The notes under the pieces are model-generated. The model saw only the letters and a program-made list of their open reading frames with translations. It had not been told where the DNA came from and searched no databases. From Planctomycetota bacterium (GTDB lineage: Bacteria > Planctomycetota > UBA1135 > UBA2386): a stretch of 17,909 nt of DNA. Made by a program: the position numbers and the translations under genes. The stretch spans positions 1-17,909 of the forward strand of contig JBCCGH010000196.1 in assembly GCA_039029375.1 (NCBI GenBank), read 5' to 3'. Positions 4,500-17,909 of this stretch are shown here, piece after piece (within the stretch, counting starts at the first letter, position 1; every line of letters starts with the position of its first letter).

Positions 4500-6080
4500 G
4501 TGCGTTCGCAACCCGGAGTGCAACCACGCACGATCGCTGCGCTCGCGGGCCGGTTGCTCGAATGGAACGCTTCGGGGGTGGAGACGTTTTGGCGCGCGAG
4601 CTCGCGCCAGACCCTCGTCCAGTTGGTCGCCGGGAGCTTTGCCGCAATCGCGGTCATCGAGGTGTGGCGGCTGGCGTCTGTCGCTGCCACCGGTGATGTC
4701 GGTGTCCTTGGAGACGCCCCGTTCGCTTGGTACGCCTACCATCCGGGCCGGGGCGTCGCCTCGTGGGTGGTCTCTGCCTGGCCTCTCATTCCTTGGGCCC
4801 TCGGCGTCGGCGCGGGCTTGGAGTTGTGCGTGCGCAGTGCAAAAGGCCAAAGTGCGCGCCGGCATCGCCCCGCGGAGATCGTTCTGGTCGGCCGTGCTCT
4901 CCAGGCGGTTGTCCTGGTGGTCGCAGCCGCTCACGGCGCGACGATGGGTCGGACGGCACCCGGGCTGTGGATCGCGACGGGTTGGGGGGCCGGGTACGCG
5001 CTCGTCGTTTGGCTGCGCCGCTCGCCCCGCGGTCGCCAATGGTGGTCCTTCTGGACCCGGACACGCGGCCGGCAACCTCGGCTCGACGCGCGGGTCCTGG
5101 CGTGCTTGGTCGGGGCCGGCTTCGCTATGGCCGTGCTGTCGATTTTCCTTGCGAGGGCGGCTGGCGCGTGGGGGATTGTGCTCGTGGCGACCGTGCTCGC
5201 GGCGCCCGCTGTCGCGTTTGCTGCCCCGAGTTGGCGCGTGGCGGAGGTGGGAGCCGGGGGAGCCGAGTCTGGCGCGGCGCCGGATCTGGAATCCGAGCTT
5301 CCGGGGCTACACATGATCGAGATCGGCGCCGGGACGTTCGAGATGGGAGGGACGCGCTACGGTGATGAGCAGCCCGTGCACCGAGTCACCGTTGCCGCGT
5401 TCGCGATGGGCGCCACCACCGTCACGCGGGGGCTGTACCGCGCGGTGCTGCGGCGCGCTCCGGCAACGGAAGGACTCTACAAACCCAACTGGCTCGACGA
5501 GGCGGACGGAAACGAGTTGCCTGCCACCGCGTTGAGTTGGGTCGACGCAGCGCGCTTTTGCAATGCGCTGTCTCTACTCGCTGGACGGTCGCCGTACTAC
5601 CGGATGCGCGGCGTGGGAGACAACGCTCGGCCGGTCGCGGATTCGACCGGCGGCTACCGACTGCCCTCCGAGGCGGAGTGGGAGTATGCCTGCCGGGCTG
5701 GCACGACCACCGAGTATTCGTTTGGCGATGATGCATCGCTGCTCAGCGAGCATGCGTGGTGGGGGAACAACTCGGACACAGGATCGGGCCGCTCGGCCCA
5801 GCCGTGCGGCGGCAAGACACCAAATCCGTGGGGTCTGTGCGACATGCACGGCAACGTGTGGGAGTGGTGCGAGGACGACTGGCACGACGACTATCAGGGC
5901 GCGCCGACGGATGGCCGTGCGTGGAACGACGATGGCGTGAGTCGGGTGCTGCGGGGCGGCTCCTTCGGCGTCGACTACCCGGGGCTCTTGCGCTCGGCGT
6001 GCCGGCGCAGGAGCGAGCCCACGCGCCGGCGCGAGAGCATCGGCTTCCGCGTCGTCCGTCCCGCGCGCCGCCAGCGGTGA
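4500..6080 (+). CDS. DGR target protein 1: ~6 predicted TM helices at the N-terminus plus a C-terminal FGE-sulfatase (CLec-fold) domain that carries VR1; GTG start is uncertain
   Basis: Six hydrophobic segments lie within aa 40-235. The FGE/SUMF1-type domain reads GAGTFEMGGTRYGDEQPVHRVTVAAF...RLPSEAEWEYACRAGT...HGNVWEWCEDDW...RGGSF...IGFRVVRP. Its last ~45 codons are homologous to the TR. Confidence 0.8.
   Translation: MRSQPGVQPRTIAALAGRLLEWNASGVETFWRASSRQTLVQLVAGSFAAIAVIEVWRLASVAATGDVGVLGDAPFAWYAYHPGRGVASWVVSAWPLIPWALGVGAGLELCVRSAKGQSARRHRPAEIVLVGRALQAVVLVVAAAHGATMGRTAPGLWIATGWGAGYALVVWLRRSPRGRQWWSFWTRTRGRQPRLDARVLACLVGAGFAMAVLSIFLARAAGAWGIVLVATVLAAPAVAFAAPSWRVAEVGAGGAESGAAPDLESELPGLHMIEIGAGTFEMGGTRYGDEQPVHRVTVAAFAMGATTVTRGLYRAVLRRAPATEGLYKPNWLDEADGNELPATALSWVDAARFCNALSLLAGRSPYYRMRGVGDNARPVADSTGGYRLPSEAEWEYACRAGTTTEYSFGDDASLLSEHAWWGNNSDTGSGRSAQPCGGKTPNPWGLCDMHGNVWEWCEDDWHDDYQGAPTDGRAWNDDGVSRVLRGGSFGVDYPGLLRSACRRRSEPTRRRESIGFRVVRPARRQR
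5941..6073 (+). repeat. DGR variable repeat VR1
   Basis: 133-nt alignment to the TR. 17 mismatches, all at TR adenine positions (AAC codons). The A-free 3' segment cggcttccgcgtcgtccgtcccgcgcgccgcc is identical to the TR and is IMH-like. Confidence 0.85.
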
Positions 6081-6104
6081 TTCGCCCTTTGCGCCTTGCC
6101 CCTT

Positions 6105-6123
6105 GCCGCGCCGCAGGCGCGGC
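6105..6123 (+). other. GC hairpin downstream of VR1 (putative DGR homing/cruciform element)
   Basis: GCCGCGCC-GCA-GGCGCGGC followed by cgcgcgtgt, 31 nt after the VR1 end. A near-identical element follows VR2. Confidence 0.6.
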
Positions 6124-6172
6124 GCGCGTGTGTCACCGCAGCGACACTCACGTGTCACCTTGGTGACGACGC

Positions 6173-7165
6173 TCAGAAACACAGCAGCCCGCGATAGGAG
6201 GCCACCACCCGCTCCAACTGTGCGGGTGACTGAGCCGCGGCGACCCGCAGGCGCGCGTCGAGCCGGCGGCGCAACTTCCGCGAGGCGCTCACCCCGGCGC
6301 GACTGATGCGATAGCCCAAAAACACCGCGGGCTCCCGATTGGGGACGACGTGCCACCGCTTGCGATTCAGCTCCAGCCCGCGCTCGCGCTGGAGCCACGC
6401 CGCGATCTGAGCGCGCGCCTCGCGGAGCCGCCCAGCGTCGTCGTCGAACAGCACGAAGTCGTCGGTGTAGCGCACGTAGCCTGGGGCCTTGAGCTCTCGT
6501 TTCACGTGATGATCGAGCCCGTCCAGGTAGAAGGCTCCGGCCCATTGGCTCAAGTACGATCCCAAGCTCAGGCCGCTTTCGGTCGGCAAGGGCGCCCGTT
6601 CGAGGTCGAGTGCAGCCACTGCCAGGGGACTCTCGTACACCGCCGCGTGCGAAGCGAGCTGCCGGTCGATCAACTGCCGCGTGCACGGATCGCGCAAGCG
6701 GCGAAACATCAAGCGCCGCAGCGTCGGCAAGTGGATCGAAGCGAAATAGCGCCGCACGTCGAGGTGCACGCGGTGGCGATGCCGGCGCTGCAGCCGTAAG
6801 AACGTCAGACAAGCGCGCAGCGGACCCTTGGCCTGGGATTGCGCGAAGTGCTCGGGTCGGTAGCCCTGCTCATACGCGGGGCCGATCTCGTCGAGGAGAG
6901 CGCGCTGCACGATCCGGTCGCGGATCGCGGGCGCGGCGATGATGCGGACCTTGGGGTCCGCGATCACCCGTAGCGTCCAGGGCCGAGGCCGGTACCGGCC
7001 ATTGCGCAGTGCCCGGTGTAGCTCCAGGATCTTGCGATCGGCATCGAGGTCGAACCACGCCATTCGCGGCTGCCGCGACTTGCCTCGGCGGCAAGCGCGG
7101 TACGCGCGCCACAGCGCGACGTGGTCGGTCAGGCGTGCAAAAGACCCGGCTGGAACTCGGCGCAT
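6173..7165 (-). CDS. DGR reverse transcriptase (330 aa)
   Basis: RT motifs present: KVRIIAAPAIRDRIVQRAL (motifs 1/2), LDVRRYFASI (motif A), YVRYTDDFVLF (YxDD). The DGR-diagnostic SLGSYLSQ ([ILV]GxxxSQ) is also present. A TR lies immediately upstream. Confidence 0.9.
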   Translation of the reverse strand: MRRVPAGSFARLTDHVALWRAYRACRRGKSRQPRMAWFDLDADRKILELHRALRNGRYRPRPWTLRVIADPKVRIIAAPAIRDRIVQRALLDEIGPAYEQGYRPEHFAQSQAKGPLRACLTFLRLQRRHRHRVHLDVRRYFASIHLPTLRRLMFRRLRDPCTRQLIDRQLASHAAVYESPLAVAALDLERAPLPTESGLSLGSYLSQWAGAFYLDGLDHHVKRELKAPGYVRYTDDFVLFDDDAGRLREARAQIAAWLQRERGLELNRKRWHVVPNREPAVFLGYRISRAGVSASRKLRRRLDARLRVAAAQSPAQLERVVASYRGLLCF

Positions 7166-7337
7166 CAGCGCAACCCAAAGACCGCGTCCCTAAAAAGAGG
7201 CCCGCGCGGACGGTCGGCCGTGCGGCCTACAAGACCGCGCGGGCAGGGGGATCGCGGGGTGCCCCGGCCGTTTCGGCCGAGGTCGAAGCCCCGCCCAAGC
7301 CCTGCACGGCGCCGAGGCGGAGTCGCGGGCGGCGTGT

Positions 7338-7470
7338 TGGCGGCGCGCGGGACGGACGACGCGGAAGCCGATGTTCTCGTTCCGGTTCGTGGGCTCGTTC
7401 CTGTTCCGGTACGCCGAGCGCAAGTTCCTCGGGTTGTCGTTGTCGAAGGAGCCGCCCCGCAGCACCCGAT
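7338..7470 (-). repeat. DGR template repeat (TR)
   Basis: Adenine-rich in the sense (minus) orientation: 27 As, AAC codons translating as ...GGSFDNDNPRNLRSAYRNRNEPTNRNENIGFRVVRP. It is the invariant master copy for VR1 and VR2. It lies 45 nt downstream of avd and ~170 nt upstream of the RT. Confidence 0.85.
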
Positions 7471-7514
7471 GGGGCGGGACGGGAAGTTCGGGCTTGGTGA
7501 AGGTGTGAGCATGG

Positions 7515-7889
7515 CTAGCGGGGCTCGAGCGAGCGCAGCCAGCCGCCCAGCTGGCGGCCAATGCGATCCGCTTCGCCGAGCGCGAAGAACGCCTGCGAGG
7601 AGGCGAGCAGCGCACGCGCCTCGGCGAGCCGCAGATGCACGCGCAGCATCACGAGGCGGTCGTCGGCTTCGGCGAGCCGTTCGTCCACCTCGCGGTGCCG
7701 GACCGCGAGGCTGATGGCGTCGAGCAGACGCAGGCCGTTGTCGCACAGCGAGCGTGCCAGCGGCCGATCGTCGTCCTCCAGCCGATCGAGCAGCCAGGTG
7801 CAGAGTGCGAAGGTGTCGCGGAACACGGGCGCTGTGCCCGGCCGGGGGCGTGGCGTGGTCGGTGGTTCGGGAAGCATGGCGCGGCACAC
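7515..7889 (-). CDS. avd: Avd-like DGR accessory variability determinant (~120 aa helical bundle); start is GTG at 7889 or ATG at 7877
   Basis: Canonical position between the target gene and TR-RT. Size and helical character fit Avd. LVMLRVHLRL...EADRIGRQLGGWLRS resembles Bordetella-phage bAvd LAMLRFWLRFL...EVGRILGSWIAR. Confidence 0.6.
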   Translation of the reverse strand: MCRAMLPEPPTTPRPRPGTAPVFRDTFALCTWLLDRLEDDDRPLARSLCDNGLRLLDAISLAVRHREVDERLAEADDRLVMLRVHLRLAEARALLASSQAFFALGEADRIGRQLGGWLRSLEPR

Positions 7890-7890
7890 C

Positions 7891-8451
7891 TCAGTAGCGT
7901 CGGCGCCGGTCGACGCGGCGCAGCAGGCCGGCGAACGCCGGCATCAACTCCTGCTCGATCGAATCGGCAAGCTCCGCGGCCACCGGGCTCGTCTCTAGCA
8001 GGAGGTCGTTCAGGCAGCGGCTGGCCAGGTCGCGGGCTGTGCCATAGGCGGTGGCTTTCTCCGCGTGGTCGTAGCGGTGGCAACCGCAGCTCAACTGGGC
8101 GAGGGATTCGCGCAGCGTCGCCGTGGCGGCGTGCTCGGTGCCCAGCGATTGCGCAGCGCGCGCGTGGATTGGGGCCATGACCTGGAACGCCTTCAGGTCG
8201 CGTACCGAGTAGCGCTTGCGCGGCGTTGGCTCCGGTTCCAAGCCTAGGCCGGTCTCAACCGCCTCGCGCAAGCGCTCGCGCTTGCGCTCTTGAGCTTCCT
8301 TTCGCGTAGCAGTGAGCGGCAGATCATCGCTGGCAATGAGCCAGCGGCCTCCGACTTTGCGCGCGCGCAGGTTGCCTTGGCGGATGAGGTAGCGGACTTG
8401 GCGCGGGCTCTTGCCAAGCCTCGTGGCGGCGTCGTGCAGGGAAAGGTCCAT
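7891..8451 (-). CDS. Helix-turn-helix (excisionase / MerR-like HTH_17) DNA-binding protein, 186 aa, sitting between target 2 and avd
   Basis: MDLSLHDAATRLGKSPRQVRYLIRQGNLRARKVGGRWLIASDDL is a typical N-terminal HTH. The ATG is at 8449-8451 (internal to the 243-aa track ORF). It is tightly packed against avd. Confidence 0.55.
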   Translation of the reverse strand: MDLSLHDAATRLGKSPRQVRYLIRQGNLRARKVGGRWLIASDDLPLTATRKEAQERKRERLREAVETGLGLEPEPTPRKRYSVRDLKAFQVMAPIHARAAQSLGTEHAATATLRESLAQLSCGCHRYDHAEKATAYGTARDLASRCLNDLLLETSPVAAELADSIEQELMPAFAGLLRRVDRRRRY

Positions 8452-8587
8452 GGTCGTGCGCGTGCGCAGGGGGGAAGCGTCAGGCGTCGGGAGACCGCAC
8501 GGGGATTCCGGGATGCGCCGACGCACGGCGGTGGCGTGTGTGTCATCTTGGTGACCGGCGTGTCGCGCACGCGACAAAATACACGCG

Positions 8588-8604
8588 CCGCGCCTTCGGC
8601 GCGG
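8588..8604 (-). other. GC hairpin downstream of VR2 (counterpart of 6105-6123)
   Basis: Minus strand reads CCGCGCC-GAA-GGCGCGG then cgcgtgt, ~37 nt after the VR2 end. It shares the core CCGCGCCG..GGCGCGGCGCG.GTGT with the VR1 element. Confidence 0.6.
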
Positions 8605-8637
8605 AGACGAGGCAAGCGGCAATCCGCGAGCGGCGAG

Positions 8638-11600
8638 CTACTGGCGGCGCGCGGGACGGACGACGCGGAAGCCGATGTACTCGTTCCGGAGCGTGGGCTC
8701 GCTCCTGTTCCGGTACGCCGAGCGCAAGTTCCCCGGGTTGTCGTTGACGAAGGAGCCGCCCCGCAGCACCCGCCAAGCGTTGGCACCGGCGAGCCAGGCG
8801 TTGCCGTTGTCAGGGGCACCGCCATAGTCGTCGTGCCAACGATCCTCGCACCATTCCCACACGTTGCCGTGCATGTCGAACAGACCCCACGGGTTGGGCC
8901 GCTTGTGCGCGACCCGCTGCACCGAGCGGTCGGCCCCGCTGTCCGAGTTCCGGAACCACCAGGCGTGGGCACTCAATTCCCCGCCGTGGTTGCCGAACCA
9001 ATACGCACCGAGGGTGCCGGCCCGGCAGGCAAACTCCCACTCGGCCTCAGACGGCAGCCGGTAGCCGTCCGGGTTGTCGGGCGCCGGTTCTGCCGTTGCG
9101 CTCTGCCCCTGGCCGTGGACCGCGTAGTACGGGGCGCGGCCCACAAGCCGGGAAAGCGCGTTGCAGAATCGGACGGTATCGAGCCAGCTCAGCTCGTTGG
9201 CCGGGAGGTCGTGCCCGGAGTCCTTCTCCAGCCAGCCGGGCCGGTGAAGTTCCTGGTGGCCTGGCACGTCGTGCGACCGCGCGGCTGCCAACACGGCCCG
9301 GTATTGCGCACGGGTGACCTCGGTACGGCCGATCTCGAAGTCGCGGACGGTGACGGCGTGCTGTGGCAGCTCGTCGCCATACCTCGTGTCCGGGTCACTG
9401 GGGTCGCGGCCCATTTGGAACCGACCGCCTTGCAGACGCACCATGGACAGACCGAGCCGCAGCTGGGGCCGGCCCGCGGCGACCTCAATCGTGGCCTTTG
9501 GCCATAGATCCTCCAGCGGTACGAGTGACTCGGCGAACGCGCCAGCCATCCTGCCAAACCCGTCGGGGGAAACCGCGGCCAGAGACGGCGCGCCGCGCCA
9601 TGCTTGCAGCGCGTGCTTGGTTTGGCCAGTGGGGCCGATCCATACGATCTGCTCGGATTCCGCGCGTTCGAACGGTCTCTCCGCCTCGGCCGGCCCCGAC
9701 GCCGCCTCGCCGACCAACGCCACGTCCACCGACCCCGTATCGAGCAGGGCCATCGCCAACGGCACGGCTTCGCGGTCCTCTGCAGGCGCCGCGATCACCG
9801 CGGCGCTCTGGGTCCACCGGGGATCGTCGACGCGCCGCGGCTCATCGTCCAAGCCCCGCCAAAGGACCAGGAAACCGCCGGCTGGCACGGCGTTCTCGAC
9901 CTCGACCGGGCGCCAACGCGGGTCTACGTCGAGGTCTGGGTTGAACTCGACGCGCGTCAGCCGGCCGGGCATGCCGAGCAGCGCTCGGGCGCGCCCATCC
10001 GCGACATTGATCTTCGCGCATGCGCCCACGGTCACGGCCGGTGGGGGCGGCGGTGCCGTCAGCCGCGGCCCCCACCAGTGGCGCATCACGGGAAGGAACA
10101 GGCAGCCGCCCCCCAGGCCGCAGAGCAACGCCAAGGCGACGGCGGCGGGGCGCGGCAAGCGCGGGTCGGCGAACTCGGTGCGGCGCAGCGCGCCGAAGCC
10201 GAGCCGCTGCAGGCGGTGGACCGTGTCGGGGCGGGCGCACCAGGATGCGCGCGTCGCGGGGCCACCGACCCGCCACGGCAGCCGGACCAACCGGCGTTCG
10301 AGCTCGAGCCGACTCTCCTCCGCGCTGCCGCGGGCTGGCCGCGTGGCAGCCTCCTCGCGCGCTCTCGCGTTGCGCGGCGCCAAGGTTTCGAGGCGGGCCC
10401 GCACGCGCGTTGCGAGGCCGGACGCCGCGAGCCGCTCCAGCGTTGCGGCCGCGGTGTCGGGTGTGCGCCAGAGCTGGAGCAGCGCGATCTCCAGGCGCAA
10501 GGCGAGGCGCTGTTGCTCGCGCTGGTGTCGTTGCCGTGCCCGCTCGGATGACGGCTCCCGGGGCGCTGGGGGGCCTGCACGCACCTCCTCGCCATCGAGC
10601 CGGGCGAGCTCGCGCCGGTAGCCGTCCAGCCAGAACTGCACGCCGTGGCATAGCCAGCCCTCGGTGGGAAAGCCATGGGCAGCATCGTCCGTGCGCGCGA
10701 GCCAGTCACACCAGAGCGCGCGATCCTCGGGGGCGAAGCCGTAGCGCGCCCCGGTGGGGACCGCGTGCTCGAGCAGACGCTCGAGCTGACGCGCTTCGAC
10801 GCTCAGGCCGAGCGCCTCGCGCAGGGCCAGCGCGGTGTCGAAGTCAAAGCTGTCCGGTGTCAGTGCCAGTCCGGCCGCCCAAGCGCGCCGCGCGCCCGTC
10901 AGCGGCGGCGGCGTGCCGCCCGGGTGCAGCCGCGGCAGCTTGCCGTCCATCGTCCCCGGTTCGCCGCCGAGCCAACTCGGCACGGCGGTCGGCGCGAGGC
11001 ACGGAATGCCGTGCCGGCTGGTGATCCGCGCGAGGTCGAACGCGCCTCGGCCGTAGTCGGCAAACGCGAGACGCGGCCATTGGGCCAGGCCGGCCAGCTT
11101 CCGGTCGAGGCGTTGGCGGCGCAGTTCGCCCTGGTCTTGGATCCACAGGCCATGTCCGTCGGTCAGCACGGCGACCAGCGCGGTTTGACGCTGGCCCTCC
11201 ACGGTCTCGGGCCGAAACTGCGTTTGGTTTTCGTCCCACCACAGCGTCTCCAGTGTGCCGTGGAACATCGCGGTCTTGATCGGCAGCCCCGCGGCGCTCG
11301 CGCATTGACCGATCTCGTCACGCTCGCGCTCGATTAGCTCGCGGTCGGCCATGCCGTCGACCCAGAGCCAGATCTCGCGTGGATAGCGCTGCCGTTCTCG
11401 CAGCAACACGAGGTGGCCGCCGTTCTGCGAGGTGGCGGCGACCGTGCGGTCCAGGTCAATGCGGGGCGTGAGGTCGTCGCTCACGTAGTGTTGGACGTTC
11501 CACACCATGTGGCGCAGGGCGGGTTGCGGCAGCAGCGGTGTGGCCTTGGCGGGCGGCGCGAGGTGCGGCAGCGACAGCGCACTCTGTCCCAGCGCGTCGT

Positions 11601-12324
11601 CGTGGAGCTCGGGGACGCGCCGCGCCCGGGCGTAGAACACTGCGCGCGACAAGCCGGCGAGCGCGAGCAGGCCGAAACCCAACAGCAGTGCCGTCGCGAC
11701 TGACGGCGAGCGCGGCACCGGCACGGGGTCGGCCTCCCACGTGGCGAAGCGGCGCACCAAGTTGGGCGGCAGGCCGTCATCGGGCTCGGTGCCTTCGTTG
11801 CCCTGCCCCGGCGTGCCTCGGCCTTGGGCACCGCCCTCTGTTGGTGGTCCGGAGGAGCGGGGTTGCTTCAATGGAGCGTTCGAGCGGGGCTCGCGCTGCG
11901 GGCTTGGGTCACCCGGGTCGCCGGCGAGCGTCAAGACTGCGATCAGTGCGGCGAGGATGAGCCCACCGGCCGCGAGGGTTCTCCAACCGAGGAGGCCAGC
12001 GCAAGGGCGCTCCACTCCCTCTTCCTCCTGGTCCTCGGTCCACCCGCTCTCGATCGGCCGCTGCACCCGGCGCTCGATCTCCCATCGTGCGTTCTGCTGC
12101 CAGCGTTCGAACGCGGCGTCGAACGCCTCGCGCTGCGCCTTGTTTTTGGTCAGCGTGCAGCGCAGCACCTGACGCAGGGGGGCATCCTCGCTCGCCGCTG
12201 GGCCCGCCTCGTCGCCGAGCAGCCGGCACAGATGGTGCAGCCGGGCTCGTTCGAGGACCCCGACCGCGACGCCGTGCGCGTCGAGATCCCGGAGCAGCGC
12301 CTCGAGCTCGAGCGGCGAGTCCAC
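8638..12324 (-). CDS. DGR target protein 2 (1228 aa): N-terminal cytoplasmic domain, 3 TM helices, a ~500-aa middle domain (possible degenerate vWA) and a C-terminal FGE-sulfatase/CLec domain carrying VR2
   Basis: GTG start 1 nt after the MoxR stop. TM helices at ~aa 113-135, 205-227 and 720-741. A vWA-like ...TALVAVLTDGHG motif is present. The FGE domain reads GGRFQMGRDPSDPDTRYGDELPQHAVTVRDF...RLPSEAEWEFACRAGT...HGNVWEWCEDRW...RGGSF...IGFRVVRPARRQ. Confidence 0.85.
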   Translation of the reverse strand: MDSPLELEALLRDLDAHGVAVGVLERARLHHLCRLLGDEAGPAASEDAPLRQVLRCTLTKNKAQREAFDAAFERWQQNARWEIERRVQRPIESGWTEDQEEEGVERPCAGLLGWRTLAAGGLILAALIAVLTLAGDPGDPSPQREPRSNAPLKQPRSSGPPTEGGAQGRGTPGQGNEGTEPDDGLPPNLVRRFATWEADPVPVPRSPSVATALLLGFGLLALAGLSRAVFYARARRVPELHDDALGQSALSLPHLAPPAKATPLLPQPALRHMVWNVQHYVSDDLTPRIDLDRTVAATSQNGGHLVLLRERQRYPREIWLWVDGMADRELIERERDEIGQCASAAGLPIKTAMFHGTLETLWWDENQTQFRPETVEGQRQTALVAVLTDGHGLWIQDQGELRRQRLDRKLAGLAQWPRLAFADYGRGAFDLARITSRHGIPCLAPTAVPSWLGGEPGTMDGKLPRLHPGGTPPPLTGARRAWAAGLALTPDSFDFDTALALREALGLSVEARQLERLLEHAVPTGARYGFAPEDRALWCDWLARTDDAAHGFPTEGWLCHGVQFWLDGYRRELARLDGEEVRAGPPAPREPSSERARQRHQREQQRLALRLEIALLQLWRTPDTAAATLERLAASGLATRVRARLETLAPRNARAREEAATRPARGSAEESRLELERRLVRLPWRVGGPATRASWCARPDTVHRLQRLGFGALRRTEFADPRLPRPAAVALALLCGLGGGCLFLPVMRHWWGPRLTAPPPPPAVTVGACAKINVADGRARALLGMPGRLTRVEFNPDLDVDPRWRPVEVENAVPAGGFLVLWRGLDDEPRRVDDPRWTQSAAVIAAPAEDREAVPLAMALLDTGSVDVALVGEAASGPAEAERPFERAESEQIVWIGPTGQTKHALQAWRGAPSLAAVSPDGFGRMAGAFAESLVPLEDLWPKATIEVAAGRPQLRLGLSMVRLQGGRFQMGRDPSDPDTRYGDELPQHAVTVRDFEIGRTEVTRAQYRAVLAAARSHDVPGHQELHRPGWLEKDSGHDLPANELSWLDTVRFCNALSRLVGRAPYYAVHGQGQSATAEPAPDNPDGYRLPSEAEWEFACRAGTLGAYWFGNHGGELSAHAWWFRNSDSGADRSVQRVAHKRPNPWGLFDMHGNVWEWCEDRWHDDYGGAPDNGNAWLAGANAWRVLRGGSFVNDNPGNLRSAYRNRSEPTLRNEYIGFRVVRPARRQ
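8642..8774 (-). repeat. DGR variable repeat VR2
   Basis: Collinear with TR 7338-7470. 6 mismatches, all at TR adenines. The A-free 3' segment is identical to the TR. Confidence 0.85.
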
Positions 12325-12325
12325 G

Positions 12326-13285
12326 TCAGAGTTTCTGCCAGTCTTCGGTCAGCTTGATCAGCGCGTGGACGCCTGGCAAGTCGCGCCGCACCGTCTGCAG
12401 GTCGGCGGCCCGGGTGCCCTGCGCCGCGAGGACCGCGAGCCACGAGAGCAGCTCCGCCGTGGTGGGGGGCTTGGTCAGCTCCCAGTCGGCGAGCTCGAAG
12501 AAGCGATCGATCGCCGCCTCGCGCACGTCGTCCGACAGGCCCGGAAACGACGATTGAAGCCGGCTCTGCACGATGTCTTCGACGAGCTTGCGGGTGAGGG
12601 TCAAGTGCTGGTGGATGCAACGGCGCAGAAACGCGTCCGGGAGCCGTCGCTCGGCGTTGCTCGTGATGACCACGATCGGCGACCGCTGCGGCCGGATCTT
12701 GCGATCCTCGAACGGATGCTCGAACCACTGCTGGTCGAGCACGTGCAGCAGGTCGTTGGGAAAGTCGCGCGGCGCCTTGTCGATCTCGTCGATCAGCACG
12801 ACGGCGCCGTTCGGTTGGTCAAAGGACCTCCACAGCGCGCGCTTGCGGACGAAGTCGCCGCGGCCGCGGCGCAGCGCCGGCTGCCCGTCGCCGCCCCCTT
12901 CGCCCGGGGCCTCGCTGCCGTGCTGGGCCCAGTGCAAGTAGGCGACGGCGTCAAAGTCGTAGCACAGCTCCTGCGCCGTCGACGTTGACTGCACGTGAAA
13001 GGCAAAGACCTCGAGCCCAAAGAACCAGCCCAGGTAGTGCGCGACCTGCGTCTTGCCCGTGCCCGGCGCGCCGGTCAGCAGCAACGGTGCGTCCACCGCC
13101 AACGCGGTGTTGATCGCGGTCTCGAGGTCGGCGCTCAGCCGGTAGTCCGGGGCGGCCTCGGTATGGTCGTGCAGGCTGCGCGGCACGCCGCGCTGGTGCA
13201 TGCTGGCGCGCGCAGCCGCCGGGTCGTGGCCTTCGCGCGTCGCGCGGCGGTCCACCAGCTGGAAGCGTGGTCGACGGGGGGTCAT
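12326..13285 (-). CDS. MoxR-like AAA+ ATPase (AAA_5 type), 319 aa
   Basis: Walker A LLLTGAPGTGKTQVA. Walker B VVLIDEIDKAP. Sensor region IVVITSNAE...LPDAFLRRC. ATGA start/stop overlap with the upstream TIR gene. Confidence 0.85.
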   Translation of the reverse strand: MTPRRPRFQLVDRRATREGHDPAAARASMHQRGVPRSLHDHTEAAPDYRLSADLETAINTALAVDAPLLLTGAPGTGKTQVAHYLGWFFGLEVFAFHVQSTSTAQELCYDFDAVAYLHWAQHGSEAPGEGGGDGQPALRRGRGDFVRKRALWRSFDQPNGAVVLIDEIDKAPRDFPNDLLHVLDQQWFEHPFEDRKIRPQRSPIVVITSNAERRLPDAFLRRCIHQHLTLTRKLVEDIVQSRLQSSFPGLSDDVREAAIDRFFELADWELTKPPTTAELLSWLAVLAAQGTRAADLQTVRRDLPGVHALIKLTEDWQKL

Positions 13286-15588
13286 GGTTCGGGCACCTCG
13301 GCCGGCAGCCCGCGCAGCCTGTCGCGGACGTCGTACCAGTTGCTGCGCTGGGCATGCTCGAGCCAGCGGACGGTCTTCTCGAAGTCGCCATCCGTGACCT
13401 GGTGCAGCAGGCTGGCAAACTCGCGGGCGTCGGCGGGAGGGAGGCCGCTGAGGTCGATGACCGCGTCGAGGATGTGAGTGCGTTCCACTCGCTCGAGGGG
13501 GCGCAAAACCTCGAGGCGGAAAGCCTTGGTGCGCGAGTCAAAGGCTAGGTCTTCGAGCTGGACGCGCATCTTGTCATGCAGCGAGGGCTCGCCCTCGAGC
13601 CCGAGGAGGGTGAGGACCTTGACGGCGTGCGGTCGGTAGCGCTCTTGGGTCAGTGTGTCCCGCGAGAAATCGCGAAACGCCGCGACGAGCCGCTCGGCCT
13701 GCTGCCAGCTGTCGATGCCGCGGCACCCCCAATCCAAGAACAGGATTCTCGGTTTGTCAGGTTGGCCGCGGGGCGCCGCGGCATCCAACGCGGCGCGCAG
13801 CTCGTGGTCGCCATCTGCGTGGCTCATCGCCGCCACCAACGCATCGCCGAGATCGCCGGCCCGGAGGTCGATGTCAGGCGGGAGCCGCACGGGCACCCGT
13901 CGCACCGGCGCGATGTCGAGTGCGTGGTCCACGAGCGCCTGCTCGGCGTGCTCGCCGAACAGTTCGACGTGGTTGCCAGGGGAACCCCAAGCGATCGCCG
14001 CGTGCACCAGCTCCTCGCGGTTGGCCACCAGTCCATCGAACATCTTGCGAAAGGCGCCGCGCTGCTCGTGCCGGTCGAGCATCAACCGGGCCAGGCGCCG
14101 TTCGATCGGGCGGGCGCTGGCCTGGACGTCCACGCGGAACTGGTCGTAGCGCGTCCAGATGGCGGCCGCGCGGTGCAGTCCATGAGCGACGGCCTCGACC
14201 GGATCGCAGTTCTCGGCCCCGAGCACCGCCCGTAGCCACTCGACCGCATCGGTCTTGTTCTTCGCCAGGTCCTGCTTGCGGGGCGTGAGGAGCAGCACGA
14301 CCGAGGCGGCGCGGTACAGGGCCTGAGGCAACGCCGCGATCGTGGCGGGGCGCGCGCCCACGAGGTGCAAGACGACAACGCGGGCCTTGCAGCCGTCGAG
14401 GAGTTCTTCGAGCGGCACCCACGTGGCGTTCGACGGACTGTCGCCCAGCTCCACCTCGGCCACGCCCTTCCGTATGCGGCCGCGAGCGAACACATACGCC
14501 ACGACGGGCTGCTCGTGACGGACCAGGGATTGCGCTTGGGCCACGGTCGCGCAGGGAGCTGCGACGTTGGGCGCGCCCCACGCCTCCTCGAGCCCACTGC
14601 GGACGCCGTGGCCGTGCGAGAGCGCGCCGAGATCGTCGCGCGGGCCCGCGGCCACGATCAGCGTGGGGCAGGGCGCGCGCAGTGCCGACGCATCCGGGCT
14701 GCCGGCGCCTTGCGAGCACAGCTCAAAGGTCCAGAGCTGGCGCAGCGGTTCGCCGTCCCAGGTCGTTTCCCACCAGGGCAGCCCGAGCAGCTCTGGGTCT
14801 TCGGTGTCGATGCGCACTCGCAACGCGAGGCTCAACGGGGTGGGGTGCGAGCCCCCAGCCGGGGCACTCAGACTGCCGAGCACTTGTTCGGTGCAGGGCT
14901 CTGGGAGCAGGAGGTCGAACAATTCGCTGGGACGAGCGTCTCGCGCCAGTGCCGCATCCGCCTCGCACTGGGTGATGGTCGCTCCATCGGGGCCGTGGAA
15001 TTCGCTGCGCAGTTGGTCGCCGTCGCGGGAGATGCGCACGGTGAGGGTTTGCCGTTCGGCCTCGTACGCGGGGCGACGGAGCCACCTCGGCTCGCGCTGT
15101 GCCATGGCGAGCAGCTGCTGTACGGCGCGGTTTAGGGCTGTCTTCCGCTCGTGGCCGGATTCGGGGAGGCCATCAGGCCCGGTCAAGCCGTGCAGCTCGG
15201 ACAGACGGAACTCGTGCGGCGTCCCGTCTAGCTCCCGAACGTCCAGCGCGATCTGATCGATCAGCGTCGGCCCAACGGCCAGCCACGTGATGTCGAGGAG
15301 CTTGCGCTGGCGCTGCTGGTACAGCAGAGGCAGCTCGACTTCGGTGACCCACTTCGAGTTGAGCGCTTCGGCACTGACGAGAAGGACCCCGATCCGGGCC
15401 GCCTCGATCGCTTCGCGAATGGTCCGGTCCAACCGCGCGCCCGCGACGATTTCCTCGTCGGTCCAGATCTCCAGGGGCAGCGGCGGACTGGCACCGCGCA
15501 GTGCCGGCTCGAGCACCTGGCGGAACTCCTCCAGCACCGGCCGGTCCTTGCGCGAGTAACTAATGAAGATGTGGTTGCGACTCGCCAT
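13282..15588 (-). CDS. TIR-domain protein (768 aa): N-terminal TIR plus a ~600-aa uncharacterised C-terminal region; first gene of the operon
   Basis: HIFISYSRKDRPVLEEF is TIR motif 1. ARIGVLLVSAEALNSKWVTEVEL contains the conserved W..E (candidate catalytic Glu). No P-loop is present. Confidence 0.85.
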   Translation of the reverse strand: MASRNHIFISYSRKDRPVLEEFRQVLEPALRGASPPLPLEIWTDEEIVAGARLDRTIREAIEAARIGVLLVSAEALNSKWVTEVELPLLYQQRQRKLLDITWLAVGPTLIDQIALDVRELDGTPHEFRLSELHGLTGPDGLPESGHERKTALNRAVQQLLAMAQREPRWLRRPAYEAERQTLTVRISRDGDQLRSEFHGPDGATITQCEADAALARDARPSELFDLLLPEPCTEQVLGSLSAPAGGSHPTPLSLALRVRIDTEDPELLGLPWWETTWDGEPLRQLWTFELCSQGAGSPDASALRAPCPTLIVAAGPRDDLGALSHGHGVRSGLEEAWGAPNVAAPCATVAQAQSLVRHEQPVVAYVFARGRIRKGVAEVELGDSPSNATWVPLEELLDGCKARVVVLHLVGARPATIAALPQALYRAASVVLLLTPRKQDLAKNKTDAVEWLRAVLGAENCDPVEAVAHGLHRAAAIWTRYDQFRVDVQASARPIERRLARLMLDRHEQRGAFRKMFDGLVANREELVHAAIAWGSPGNHVELFGEHAEQALVDHALDIAPVRRVPVRLPPDIDLRAGDLGDALVAAMSHADGDHELRAALDAAAPRGQPDKPRILFLDWGCRGIDSWQQAERLVAAFRDFSRDTLTQERYRPHAVKVLTLLGLEGEPSLHDKMRVQLEDLAFDSRTKAFRLEVLRPLERVERTHILDAVIDLSGLPPADAREFASLLHQVTDGDFEKTVRWLEHAQRSNWYDVRDRLRGLPAEVPEP

Positions 15589-15660
15589 CGAATTCGGGCC
15601 GAGGGCGCCTCACAATACCGTGAGCGCTGGGCGCCCGAGAACTTAGCTCGAACGGCCGGA
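15589..15660. promoter_or_regulatory. Divergent intergenic region between the TIR operon (-) and the ATPase/HNH pair (+); presumed bidirectional promoter region
   Basis: 72-bp gap between two divergently oriented start codons. No confident -35/-10 elements could be assigned by eye in this high-GC sequence. Confidence 0.3.
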
Positions 15661-16737
15661 ATGTACCTGACCGATCTCCGCCTCCGAAACGTCAAGCTGT
15701 TCCGCGAGGTGGACCTCGCGTTCAGGGGGAACGACGACAGTGCGCGTATGTGGACCGTCGTCACCGGTGTCAACGGCCTGTGCAAGTCGACCTTGTTGCA
15801 GGCGATCGCCTTGGCCGCATCGGGGCCGAAGGTGGCCCGGGCGCTCGTCGACGACGCGCGCGACTATGTGCGCGGGGAGGGCACCGGCGGTTGCATGATC
15901 GCCGCCGGGTTCGAGCGCGCCGTCGATGCGCCGCCGATCGAGTCCGCGGGCGCCACCATTGACCGCAAACGCCTGGACTCCGTCCTGGAGCTCCACTCGA
16001 CGGACTACGATTTTGCTGGGCACGGCGAGGACTGGCGTCACATCGACGCCCTGCGGAGCGCTCGGGCGTCCGGGTTTCTCGTCGCGGGGATCGGGGTCGG
16101 CCGAACGCTGCCGCAGCCGGGCGAGGTGGCGGCGCCCAAAGACCCGATCGAGGATCGAGTGGTGGGCCTGTTTCGCTCAGGCCACAAGATGGTGGGCACC
16201 GAGTTCTATAACGCGCTCAAGCTGGACGGCCTGGAGCAGGATTTCGCCAAGTCACTTCGTTCGGTCCTGCTCCGCCTGCAGTCGACGGAGGACGGCCGGG
16301 CGCCGCTGCTGACGGGGCTTTGCGTCGACGACTTGCGGGGTCCGAACGGCCTCGATGCGATGCGGAACCTGTTGGAGACGCGGCGGTTTGAGATGTCCCT
16401 CGGAGAGACCCGGTTCCGAGTCAAGCCGACCATGCTGTCGCACGGTTATCAGGGTGTGCTGTCGTGGATCGGCGATTTGCTGGGCTACGCGTTCTTGGAG
16501 CAGCGGCGGCCGATCGAGCCGCAGGAACTCCGGGGGATCGTATTGCTCGACGAAATCGACCAGCAACCACTCGGTGCGCGAAGTGCTCCTTGCCGTTCAG
16601 CACAAGAAATGCTGCTACTGCGAGCAAGCCCTCGAGCGTGGCAACGGTGCGGTCGAGCATTTTCGGCCCAAGGTCGCGGTGCGTCGCGAAGTGACAGGAG
16701 GAGTGAAACAGACCGGCTACTGGTGGCTCGCCTATGA
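15661..16737 (+). CDS. PtuA-like (AAA_15/AAA_21, ABC-type) ATPase. Sequence after Walker B (~16565) looks out of frame and non-protein-like, so it is probably truncated or frameshifted
   Basis: MYLTDLRLRNVKLF...VTGVNGLCKSTLL is Walker A. LSHGYQGVLSWIGDL is an ABC-signature-like LSxGxQ. GIVLLDEIDQ is Walker B. No H-loop follows, and the tail QPLGARSAPCRSAQ... is Arg/Ser-rich junk. Confidence 0.5.
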   Translation: MYLTDLRLRNVKLFREVDLAFRGNDDSARMWTVVTGVNGLCKSTLLQAIALAASGPKVARALVDDARDYVRGEGTGGCMIAAGFERAVDAPPIESAGATIDRKRLDSVLELHSTDYDFAGHGEDWRHIDALRSARASGFLVAGIGVGRTLPQPGEVAAPKDPIEDRVVGLFRSGHKMVGTEFYNALKLDGLEQDFAKSLRSVLLRLQSTEDGRAPLLTGLCVDDLRGPNGLDAMRNLLETRRFEMSLGETRFRVKPTMLSHGYQGVLSWIGDLLGYAFLEQRRPIEPQELRGIVLLDEIDQQPLGARSAPCRSAQEMLLLRASPRAWQRCGRAFSAQGRGASRSDRRSETDRLLVARL

Positions 16738-17200
16738 ATTCCGCAACCTGCTTTTCTCCTGTGATGCGTGCAACAGCGCCAAATCCGATCGGTTCCCGCT
16801 CATTGAGGGCGCGACCGCTCTCGAACCAGAGCAGTCTCCGGATGAGGTCGAGGAACACCAGATGCTCGTCGACCCCCTTCGCGAGGACCCCGGTGCGCAC
16901 CTGACCTTCGTGCGCACGGGAGGGCGCTACCAGCTGGCGCCGCGCTCGGAGCGCGGCAGGGTGACGATCGAAGTGTTGGGTCTACGCCGGGACGGTCTCA
17001 AAGATCTCTATCAGCAGCACGTCAGCGAGACGTTGGCAGCGGTTATCCGAGACTACCGGCGCGACAAGAAGCGGGGGGACCGGAACGGCGTCCGCCGGGC
17101 CAGGGATCGGGCAAAGCGACTGTGCGTTCGAGAGAAGAGATTCTCGCTGCTCGCGCTTTGCTGTTTCCTTGAACAGGGTGTGGTGACGCTGCCTCGATGA
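16574..17200 (+). CDS. HNH endonuclease (PtuB-like / TIGR02646-type), ~208 aa, GTG start
   Basis: CCYCEQALERGNGAVEHFRPK...YWWLAYEFRNLLFSCDACNSAKSD fits the HNH pattern (C-x-Y-C-E ... H-x-x-P-K ... N-L-x-x-x-C-x-x-C-N). Its frame starts inside the upstream ATPase ORF. Confidence 0.7.
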   Translation: MREVLLAVQHKKCCYCEQALERGNGAVEHFRPKVAVRREVTGGVKQTGYWWLAYEFRNLLFSCDACNSAKSDRFPLIEGATALEPEQSPDEVEEHQMLVDPLREDPGAHLTFVRTGGRYQLAPRSERGRVTIEVLGLRRDGLKDLYQQHVSETLAAVIRDYRRDKKRGDRNGVRRARDRAKRLCVREKRFSLLALCCFLEQGVVTLPR

Positions 17201-17228
17201 GCCGGGTGCGCCCTTCGAACCGGCCCGG

Positions 17229-17735
17229 TCACGACCGCGTGCGCGACCGCGGACCACCCCCGGCACGGCACACCACCAAGCCGTCCGTTTGCATGCCGAG
17301 TCCCACGATGTAGTGCACGTAGTGGAACACGGCGGGGGCCACCAGAATCAGGCTGTCGAAGCGATCGAGCAAGCCGCCGTGTCCGGGGATCGTCTGGCCG
17401 AGGTCCTTGACGCCCAGATCACGCTTGATCGAGGACCGCATCAGATCGCCGAGCTGCCCCACGACGCTGACGATCAGCCCAAGACCGAGCAGCGGCAGGG
17501 GCGCGTCCATCGCGGTGCCTTTGAAGATGTAGTGACCGAGCAGCGCGACGAGCGGCGCGATGACGACGCAAGCGCCGATCGCGCCGCCGAGCGTCTTGTT
17601 TGGGCTCGTGTTGGGCGCGAGCTTGCGCTTGCCGAACGACTTGCCGGCGATGAACGCGGCGACGTCGTTTGCGGCTCGTTGTTTTGTCTCTAGAGCGAGG
17701 GGCCTCGGGGCGTGGTGGGCAGGACGCCGCAGGCT
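17229..17735 (-). pseudogene. cdsA: 5'-truncated phosphatidate cytidylyltransferase (cdsA) fragment; C-terminal ~150 aa only
   Basis: CdsA signatures: FIAGKSFGKRKLAPNTSPNKTLGGAIG and SSIKRDLGVKDLGQTIPGHGGLLDRFDSLILVAP. Upstream, the frame loses homology at ~17690 and hits TGA at 17736-17738 with no in-frame start codon. The N-terminal TM half is absent. Confidence 0.6.
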
Positions 17736-17837
17736 CAGTCACTGGCTGCCTTGGCGCGTGCGAACCGACCTAGTGTCCTGGATCCGAAGTTCCTGCACAG
17801 ATGGCACCCGTCCGGCCACCGCTCGCTGCGTCGCACC

Positions 17838-17884
17838 TCCTCGACGTATCCACCAATATGCCTGCGTCGGTGCTTCTTGCGAGC
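17838..17884. repeat. Right copy of the imperfect direct repeat (left copy at 44-90). Translated on the minus strand it is a start-less fragment of the gene at 1-120
   Basis: Minus-strand translation PDAARKKHRRRHIGGYVEEV... parallels PRDIGAGRKAGRRRHIRGYGEDD... from the gene at 1-120. The right copy is preceded by an in-frame TGA. Confidence 0.6.
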
Positions 17885-17909
17885 AGCGTCCGGTCACGCA
17901 CCCTCTGCA

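Follow-up and report, generated by a model that had tools for sequence, protein, structure and literature searches.

A probable remnant of a stand-alone Septu operon, truncated across the ptuA–ptuB boundary, in a Planctomycetota contig

What remains of a defence system when the protein-like sequence of its ATPase breaks off just behind Walker B, and an HNH nuclease domain begins at the same point in the +1 frame? This question is raised by positions 15661-17200 of a contig (17,909 bp) from the metagenome-assembled genome of a 'Planctomycetota bacterium'; the contig was analysed at its full length and is referred to as the window. The initial annotation recognized a Septu-like pair and offered three readings of the break: an internal deletion or frameshift in a decaying defence module, a sequencing indel, or an unusual compact fusion. 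The comparison with relatives set out below indicates that the locus is very probably the remnant of a stand-alone Septu operon, which was inactivated when one deletion removed ~0.55 kb spanning the gene boundary and left the remaining parts out of frame with each other.

Two gene stumps and their junction

The locus is covered by two open reading frames on the forward strand, 15571..16737 (the ATPase frame) and 16355..17200 (the HNH frame, +1 relative to the first). In the NCBI record, the former appears as AAF628_32410 (15661..16737, 358 aa, 'hypothetical protein'). The elements that could be placed are as follows.

15661..16560 (+): ptuA remnant, codons 1-300; N-terminal two thirds of an ABC ATPase of the Septu type, through Walker B plus ID
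15766-15792 (+): Walker A (P-loop), GVNGLCKST, G36-T44; invariant columns of alignment A1: G36, N38, G39, C41 and K42
16435-16452 (+): ABC signature-like motif, LSHGYQ; L259, S260, G262, Y263 and Q264 are invariant in A1
16537-16554 (+): Walker B, IVLLDE, from alignment A1; homology ends two codons further on, at D300
16561..16571 (+): deletion junction, CAGCAACCACT, placed within ~11 nt
16561..16737 (+): out-of-frame tail of the 358-aa 'ATPase', QQPLGARSAP...VARL and stop; 58 codons plus stop
16571..17200 (+): ptuB remnant, residues ~47 to the end of a ~254-aa HNH nuclease of the TIGR02646 family, stop included
16610..16774 (+): HNH core, CCYCE ... VEHFRPK ... N ... CDACN; its columns are invariant in alignment A2
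16703..17200 (+): AAF628_32415 (NCBI CDS), 165 aa, GTG start, 'hypothetical protein'

The assignment to Septu is borne out by PADLOC, whose best profile for the first part is PtuA (2e-23) and for the second PtuB (PDLC00339, 1e-47). Alignment to relatives placed the true ptuA start at ATG 15661 (MYLTDLRLRNVKLF...). Over its 300 residues, the ptuA remnant is 41–46% identical to relatives of 421-463 aa, and the closest PtuA relatives in the databases reach only 46%. A profile built from A1, which holds the ATPase and seven relatives, matched the PtuA structures 8ee4, 9kjx, 9vh1 and 9e8z with E-values of 1e-24 to 1e-30; these are the PtuA chains of Septu (8ee4) and of the retrons Ec78/Eco7 and Ec83. 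The strongest stretch of this match was ...LLDEIDLHLHPsWQ...QFIVTTHSP. The Pfam families AAA_23, AAA_21 and AAA_15 stayed below their cut-offs on the ATPase part. Walker A, the ABC-like signature and Walker B, which had been read from the sequence before, all lie in invariant A1 columns, and PADLOC, A1 and the structure profile agree that this part is a PtuA-type ATPase. The window Walker B corresponds to 391-IVLIDE-396 of Retron-Eco7 PtuA (PMC12673091). What follows in a PtuA, the rest of the ATPase domain and the C-terminal domain to which PtuB docks, was not found, as homology stops at D300.

The second stump is 38–45% identical to relatives of 249-288 aa, with a best value of 45%. The PADLOC PtuB profile is matched over positions 51-247 of 261, and its first ~50 positions have no counterpart. 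The matches of this stump to the NCBIfam PtuB and TIGR02646 models lie below the curated cut-offs, as do those of an intact relative (P0064), and Pfam gave no match for the HNH part. Past the junction, a clean HNH motif, (S)VREVLLAVQHKKCCYCEQ...VEHFRPK..., appears in the +1 frame and aligns with the region around H57 of Retron-Eco7 PtuB; the putative catalytic histidine is encoded at nt 16658-16660. A TIGR02646-type HNH nuclease with CxxC...H...N...N and a helical C-terminal domain can thus be recognized, and its C-terminal part aligns to the end of the relatives in A2. The native start codon is missing, and there is no full-length frame with a start of its own directly after ptuA. The in-frame GTG codons at 16574 and 16583 lie upstream of the intact HNH motif and could in principle start an HNH-containing product; on reading the sequence, no Shine-Dalgarno-like element was found before either of them, and the PtuA domain with which such a product would pair has been lost.

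The point at which one gene gives way to the other was located in two ways. All seven PtuA relatives of 421-463 aa used as tblastn queries end at nt 16560, at query residues 283-300, and the family alignment of the ATPase puts the end of homology at the same nucleotide. All seven PtuB relatives of 254-279 aa begin at nt 16553-16574, at query residues 40-50. The tblastn E-values range from 1e-59 to 1e-71 and, with those of PADLOC, put chance out of the question for the family assignments. A test that makes no use of homology gave the same picture: GC3 in the ATPase frame is 0.86 up to 16560 and 0.42 after it, while in the HNH frame it is 0.73-0.75 from the junction onward, and the stretch of the 16355 ORF ahead of the junction shows non-coding behaviour in the HNH frame. 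The tblastn endpoints and the GC3 switch therefore agree with the earlier observation that protein-likeness is lost just after Walker B and that the HNH domain sits in the +1 frame. The junction is resolved only to 16561-16571, because no close relative exists.

The ATPase frame continues beyond D300 (nt 16558-16560) as QQPLGARSAPCRSAQ..., for which there is no match. Neither alignment nor tblastn revealed homology between the tail at 16561-16737 and any PtuA relative, and the tail is ptuB DNA in the wrong frame. That this frame stays open to 16737 by chance, as had been supposed, is unremarkable in DNA of 65–70% GC; dozens of spurious ORFs of 40-280 aa occur in the same 3.4 kb. The '164-nt overlap' of two genes described in the initial annotation is instead the truncated ptuA being read on, out of frame, through the surviving part of ptuB.

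Intact relatives and the extent of the loss

How much is missing can be estimated from relatives in which both genes are complete. In four loci (L002, L003, L004/L005 and L006/L007), a ptuA gene for 421-450 aa directly precedes a ptuB gene for 249-258 aa, and the stop and start codons overlap by 1 or 4 nt. A reverse transcriptase is absent beside ptuAB in all four, and since none adjoins them, they are regarded as stand-alone Septu operons. Among 60 relatives of the ATPase, 58 have 412-490 aa. Full-length members continue past DEID with LHLHPTWQ...QFIVTTHSP and another ~100 residues. The two exceptions are a protein of 374 aa, which retains LHLHP...TTHSP and ends in ...ELIEKER, and one of 260 aa, a chimera that switches midway to unrelated sequence. 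An ATPase that naturally ends shortly after Walker B was found in 0 of the 60 homologues.

In 29 relatives of each protein, a median of 139 PtuA residues (range 121-176) lies past the endpoint of the window protein, and a median of 46 PtuB residues (range 40-46) lies ahead of its entry point. These parts are encoded in no frame of the window, as judged by tblastn at E<=10 with a single weak and unrelated match at 9214-9516. That match (residues 300-401 of P0017, E=0.007) falls within the 1228-aa gene described below as a retroelement target and was treated as unrelated. A rearrangement that moved the missing parts elsewhere within the window was rejected on the same tblastn result. The operon spans 1540 nt in the window versus ~2040-2130 nt in the relatives. 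The codon that corresponds to V(R/K) of the window lies ~630 nt past DEID in L002 and, from residue counts, ~520-560 nt past it in the other three loci. On these distances, the lost DNA may be put at ~520-630 bp (~0.55 kb), a length not divisible by three. Distant relatives are the basis for the ancestral sequence, the exact size of the deletion and any microhomology at its breakpoints, because no close intact locus was found in the collections searched. The best relatives, only 46% (PtuA) and 45% (PtuB) identical, are too distant for alignment at the DNA level or microhomology analysis, and an exact 27-nt pattern from the left flank gave 0 matches in genome contigs and 0 in metagenome contigs.

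The course of events that best accounts for these data would start from a stand-alone Septu operon, ptuA then ptuB, with overlapping stop and start codons. One deletion of roughly 0.55 kb would have removed the last ~139 codons of ptuA together with the first ~46 codons of ptuB, and the two gene stumps would have been rejoined out of frame. Translation of ptuA would now pass Walker B, read 58 wrong-frame codons of ptuB and stop. The internal deletion in a decaying module that was among the first readings is supported in that the missing part of PtuA is absent from every frame. The truncation of PtuA had been seen correctly; the loss on the side of ptuB, ~46 N-terminal codons and the start codon, had been overlooked.

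The deletion is probably recent, because the surviving codons (300 and 212, with neither stops nor frameshifts) are intact and conserved residues have nearly all been kept. At positions conserved in at least 90% of the relatives, 59 of 64 residues are retained in ptuA and 40 of 40 in ptuB, which is within the range of intact relatives.

Since the contig comes from a metagenome-assembled genome, in which strain mixtures or rare alleles are possible, the junction might be an artefact: an intact ptuAB from which the assembler skipped ~0.55 kb, or a deleted minority allele that happened to be assembled. This is unlikely. The Logan contig SRR22824298_91115 (5034 nt) is 100% identical to window 12764-17797, junction included, and yields the same 358-aa product, although the Logan and NCBI assemblies represent two assemblers working on what are probably the same reads. 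A skip by the assembler would moreover require an exact repeat of k-mer length common to the stretch around Walker B and the one coding for the PtuB N-terminus. These regions have no mutual homology in the relatives (L002 5820-6540), and a repeat search of the window found none involving the junction region.

The undecayed state of the surviving segments could also mean that the locus is still in use as a compact form, either through a programmed +1 frameshift giving a PtuA(1-300)-PtuB(47-end) fusion, or as a short ATPase with an N-truncated HNH protein started from an internal GTG. The HNH motif is intact downstream of GTG 16574 and 16583, and fusions of PtuB and PtuA do occur naturally (PADLOC PDLC00292, PDLC00288). 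However, the known fusions have the reverse domain order and keep the full ATPase, and the architecture of the window was found in no relative. Elements shown to be essential in homologues, namely the histidines, the H-loop and the C-terminal domain, are missing from the join. A slippery site combined with a stop or rare codon is absent from the junction, the 0-frame stop lies 175 nt downstream, and neither GTG is preceded by a Shine-Dalgarno-like sequence. PtuB alone, finally, gives neither toxicity nor defence in E. coli. The compact fusion proposed at first must be called very unlikely: it is out of frame, essential ATPase elements are absent and the natural fusions are ordered PtuB then PtuA. 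A related idea is that the deletion allele lives on in another role, with the N-truncated PtuB or a fusion acting as an HNH nuclease whose regulation is absent or altered, or the PtuA stump as a decoy or dominant-negative regulator. The chance of this seems very slim; if it were so, the neighbouring TIR/DGR operon might have co-opted the HNH product.

A sequencing error of one base or a real 1-nt frameshift near 16565 in a full-length gene would explain why the frame shifts by +1 at one sharply defined point, yet it has practically no chance of being right and the sequencing indel considered earlier is refuted, since correcting the frame yields PtuB residues from ~47 on and not a continuation of PtuA, the ~139 PtuA and ~46 PtuB residues common to all relatives are encoded in no frame, and the operon spans 1540 nt against ~2040-2130 nt in relatives.

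Expected loss of function and annotation

If the locus is a deletion remnant, as preferred here, the truncated PtuA would lack the dimer-bridging histidines of LHLHP, the H-loop strand with TTHSP, the linker, and the helical domain at the C-terminus by which PtuB is clamped. The weight of these elements can be judged from Retron-Eco7. In its PtuA, the ATPase domain extends to residue 442, the LHLHP histidines H400 and H402 bond across the ATPase dimer, and defence is lost on substitution H400A (just after Walker B) or E396Q (PMC12673091). [quoted passage not shown] Either protein alone is inert, and PtuB alone gave no toxicity or defence in E. coli (PMC12819146). By analogy with these E. coli PtuAB proteins, to which the window proteins are only distantly related, the truncated PtuA would be expected neither to hydrolyse ATP as a dimer nor to dock the nuclease, which would leave the system non-functional.

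The public gene models do not reflect this state. Both coding sequences are annotated as ordinary 'hypothetical protein' and not as a pseudogene, and the 358-aa product of AAF628_32410 includes 58 wrong-frame residues. AAF628_32415 starts 3' of the CxxC motif and the catalytic histidine, as seen when its sequence (P0062) is compared with alignment A2, and as annotated it would, from its sequence, not be a nuclease. The Logan gene call for the HNH part (16679-17200) likewise starts 3' of the catalytic histidine. AAF628_32410 and AAF628_32415 would be better annotated together as one Septu pseudogene, and an active Septu should not be scored in counts of defence systems for this genome. The importance beyond annotation is small and no new question is opened, but the locus is a clean and precisely mapped case of one deletion that would disable both partners of a defence operon at once. 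Costly or toxic defence systems turn over fast in defence islands, and the locus fits that general picture.

Surroundings of the locus

The divergent neighbour of the ptuA remnant encodes 768 aa, with TIR_2 at the N-terminus and a large, uncharacterised remainder towards the C-terminus. Its gene overlaps that of an AAA_5 (MoxR-like) ATPase by 4 nt; the two occupy 12326-15588 (-) and are placed directly upstream, on the same strand, of the large target gene of a diversity-generating retroelement (DGR). The full string behind the TIR gene on this strand comprises the AAA_5 ATPase, the 1228-aa DGR target of the FGE-sulfatase type, an HTH protein and the DGR reverse transcriptase (RT). The parts of the retroelement are as follows.

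4500-12324: diversity-generating retroelement with two targets; RT at 6173..7165 (-)
7338-7468: DGR template repeat
8642-8772 (-): variable repeat 1, at the 3' end of the 1228-aa gene, C-terminal FGE-sulfatase domain; 95% identical to the template
5943-6074 (+, inverted): variable repeat 2, 3'-terminal part of an FGE-sulfatase gene of 526 aa; 88-89% identical to the template

The TIR/DGR operon next to the pair, noted before, is thereby confirmed as real by Pfam (TIR_2, AAA_5, RVT_1 and two FGE-sulfatase proteins) and by one template with two variable repeats. It is unusual for a TIR protein and a DGR target to share a gene string, and this arrangement may merit separate attention. No relative of the TIR protein was found in the GTDB species representatives. 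A defence-island context, as suggested in the initial annotation, is plausible, and no result gives the TIR/DGR operon a functional tie with the Septu remnant.

On the other side of the locus, at 17229-17740 (-), lies cdsA (phosphatidate cytidylyltransferase), of which only a 3' fragment is present. The fragment matches positions 145-263 of 264 in Pfam CTP_transf_1 and positions 164-275 of 285 in NCBIfam PRK11624. There is an in-frame stop upstream and no start codon before the M at 17510, and the N-terminal membrane part is absent from the remaining ~200 nt. It is the second truncated gene of the window and converges with the ptuB remnant at a distance of 28 nt.

The ends of the contig carry an imperfect direct repeat of ~90-100 nt (~9-125 and ~17805-17909), the core of which is 80% identical between 44-94 and 17838-17888. 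The Logan contig stops at 17797, just before the right-hand copy. A dispersed repeat family at which assemblies break would be consistent with this; a pair of att-like sites around a 17.8-kb island is a conceivable alternative reading. Rfam holds no match for the repeat.

The GC content is 64.7% in 16001-17000 versus 67-76% elsewhere in the window, and GC3 is 0.75 in the ptuB part versus 0.86 in ptuA. This mild difference in composition would fit horizontally acquired defence genes. A scan of 15400-17400 found neither promoters nor terminators, and scans of the window for tRNAs and Rfam families were empty.

PtuA and PtuB also serve as effectors of type I-A retrons (Retron-Eco7/Ec78 and Ec83), which consist of an RT, an ncRNA, PtuA and PtuB. 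The window proteins belong to homologous effector families (NCBIfam NF041760 and NF041761; PDB). In contrast to these retrons, the window has no retron RT or ncRNA upstream of ptuA, where the divergent TIR gene is found, and its only RT (6173..7165 (-)) belongs to the DGR, 8.5 kb away. Walker A begins at residue 36, compared with 93 in Eco7, and the RT-binding N-terminal extension is lacking. The retron I-A profiles of PADLOC score far below its Septu profiles, and Rfam detected no retron RNA in the window. An identity with retron I-A was rejected on the lack of the RT, the ncRNA and the extension.

The natural PtuB-PtuA fusions (PDLC00292 and PDLC00288, ~730 aa) resemble the locus in having HNH and ATPase modules without an intergenic gap. 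They carry the HNH module at the N-terminus (profile ~40-215) and a complete ATPase from ~308, in frame. This possibility was discarded too, as the window has the reversed order (ATPase, then HNH), a +1 frame difference and an incomplete ATPase.

The closest likeness is to Septu itself (8EE4/8EE7). Both gene families are the same and occur in the same order, ptuA then ptuB; the window PtuA has no N-terminal extension and begins directly at the ATPase domain; the HNH motif is conserved, as are Walker A, the ABC signature and Walker B; and the closest relatives of the window genes are stand-alone two-gene operons. Apart from an identity of at most 46% to any relative in the databases, the differences lie at the gene boundary, where the window lacks ~0.55 kb and the stumps are joined out of frame: PtuA is without the dimer histidines, the H-loop, the linker and the C-terminal domain, and PtuB is without ~46 N-terminal residues and its start codon. 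Since neither a complete ATPase with its docking domain nor a full-length PtuB is present, the locus is filed as a pseudogenised relative of Septu and not as a working member.
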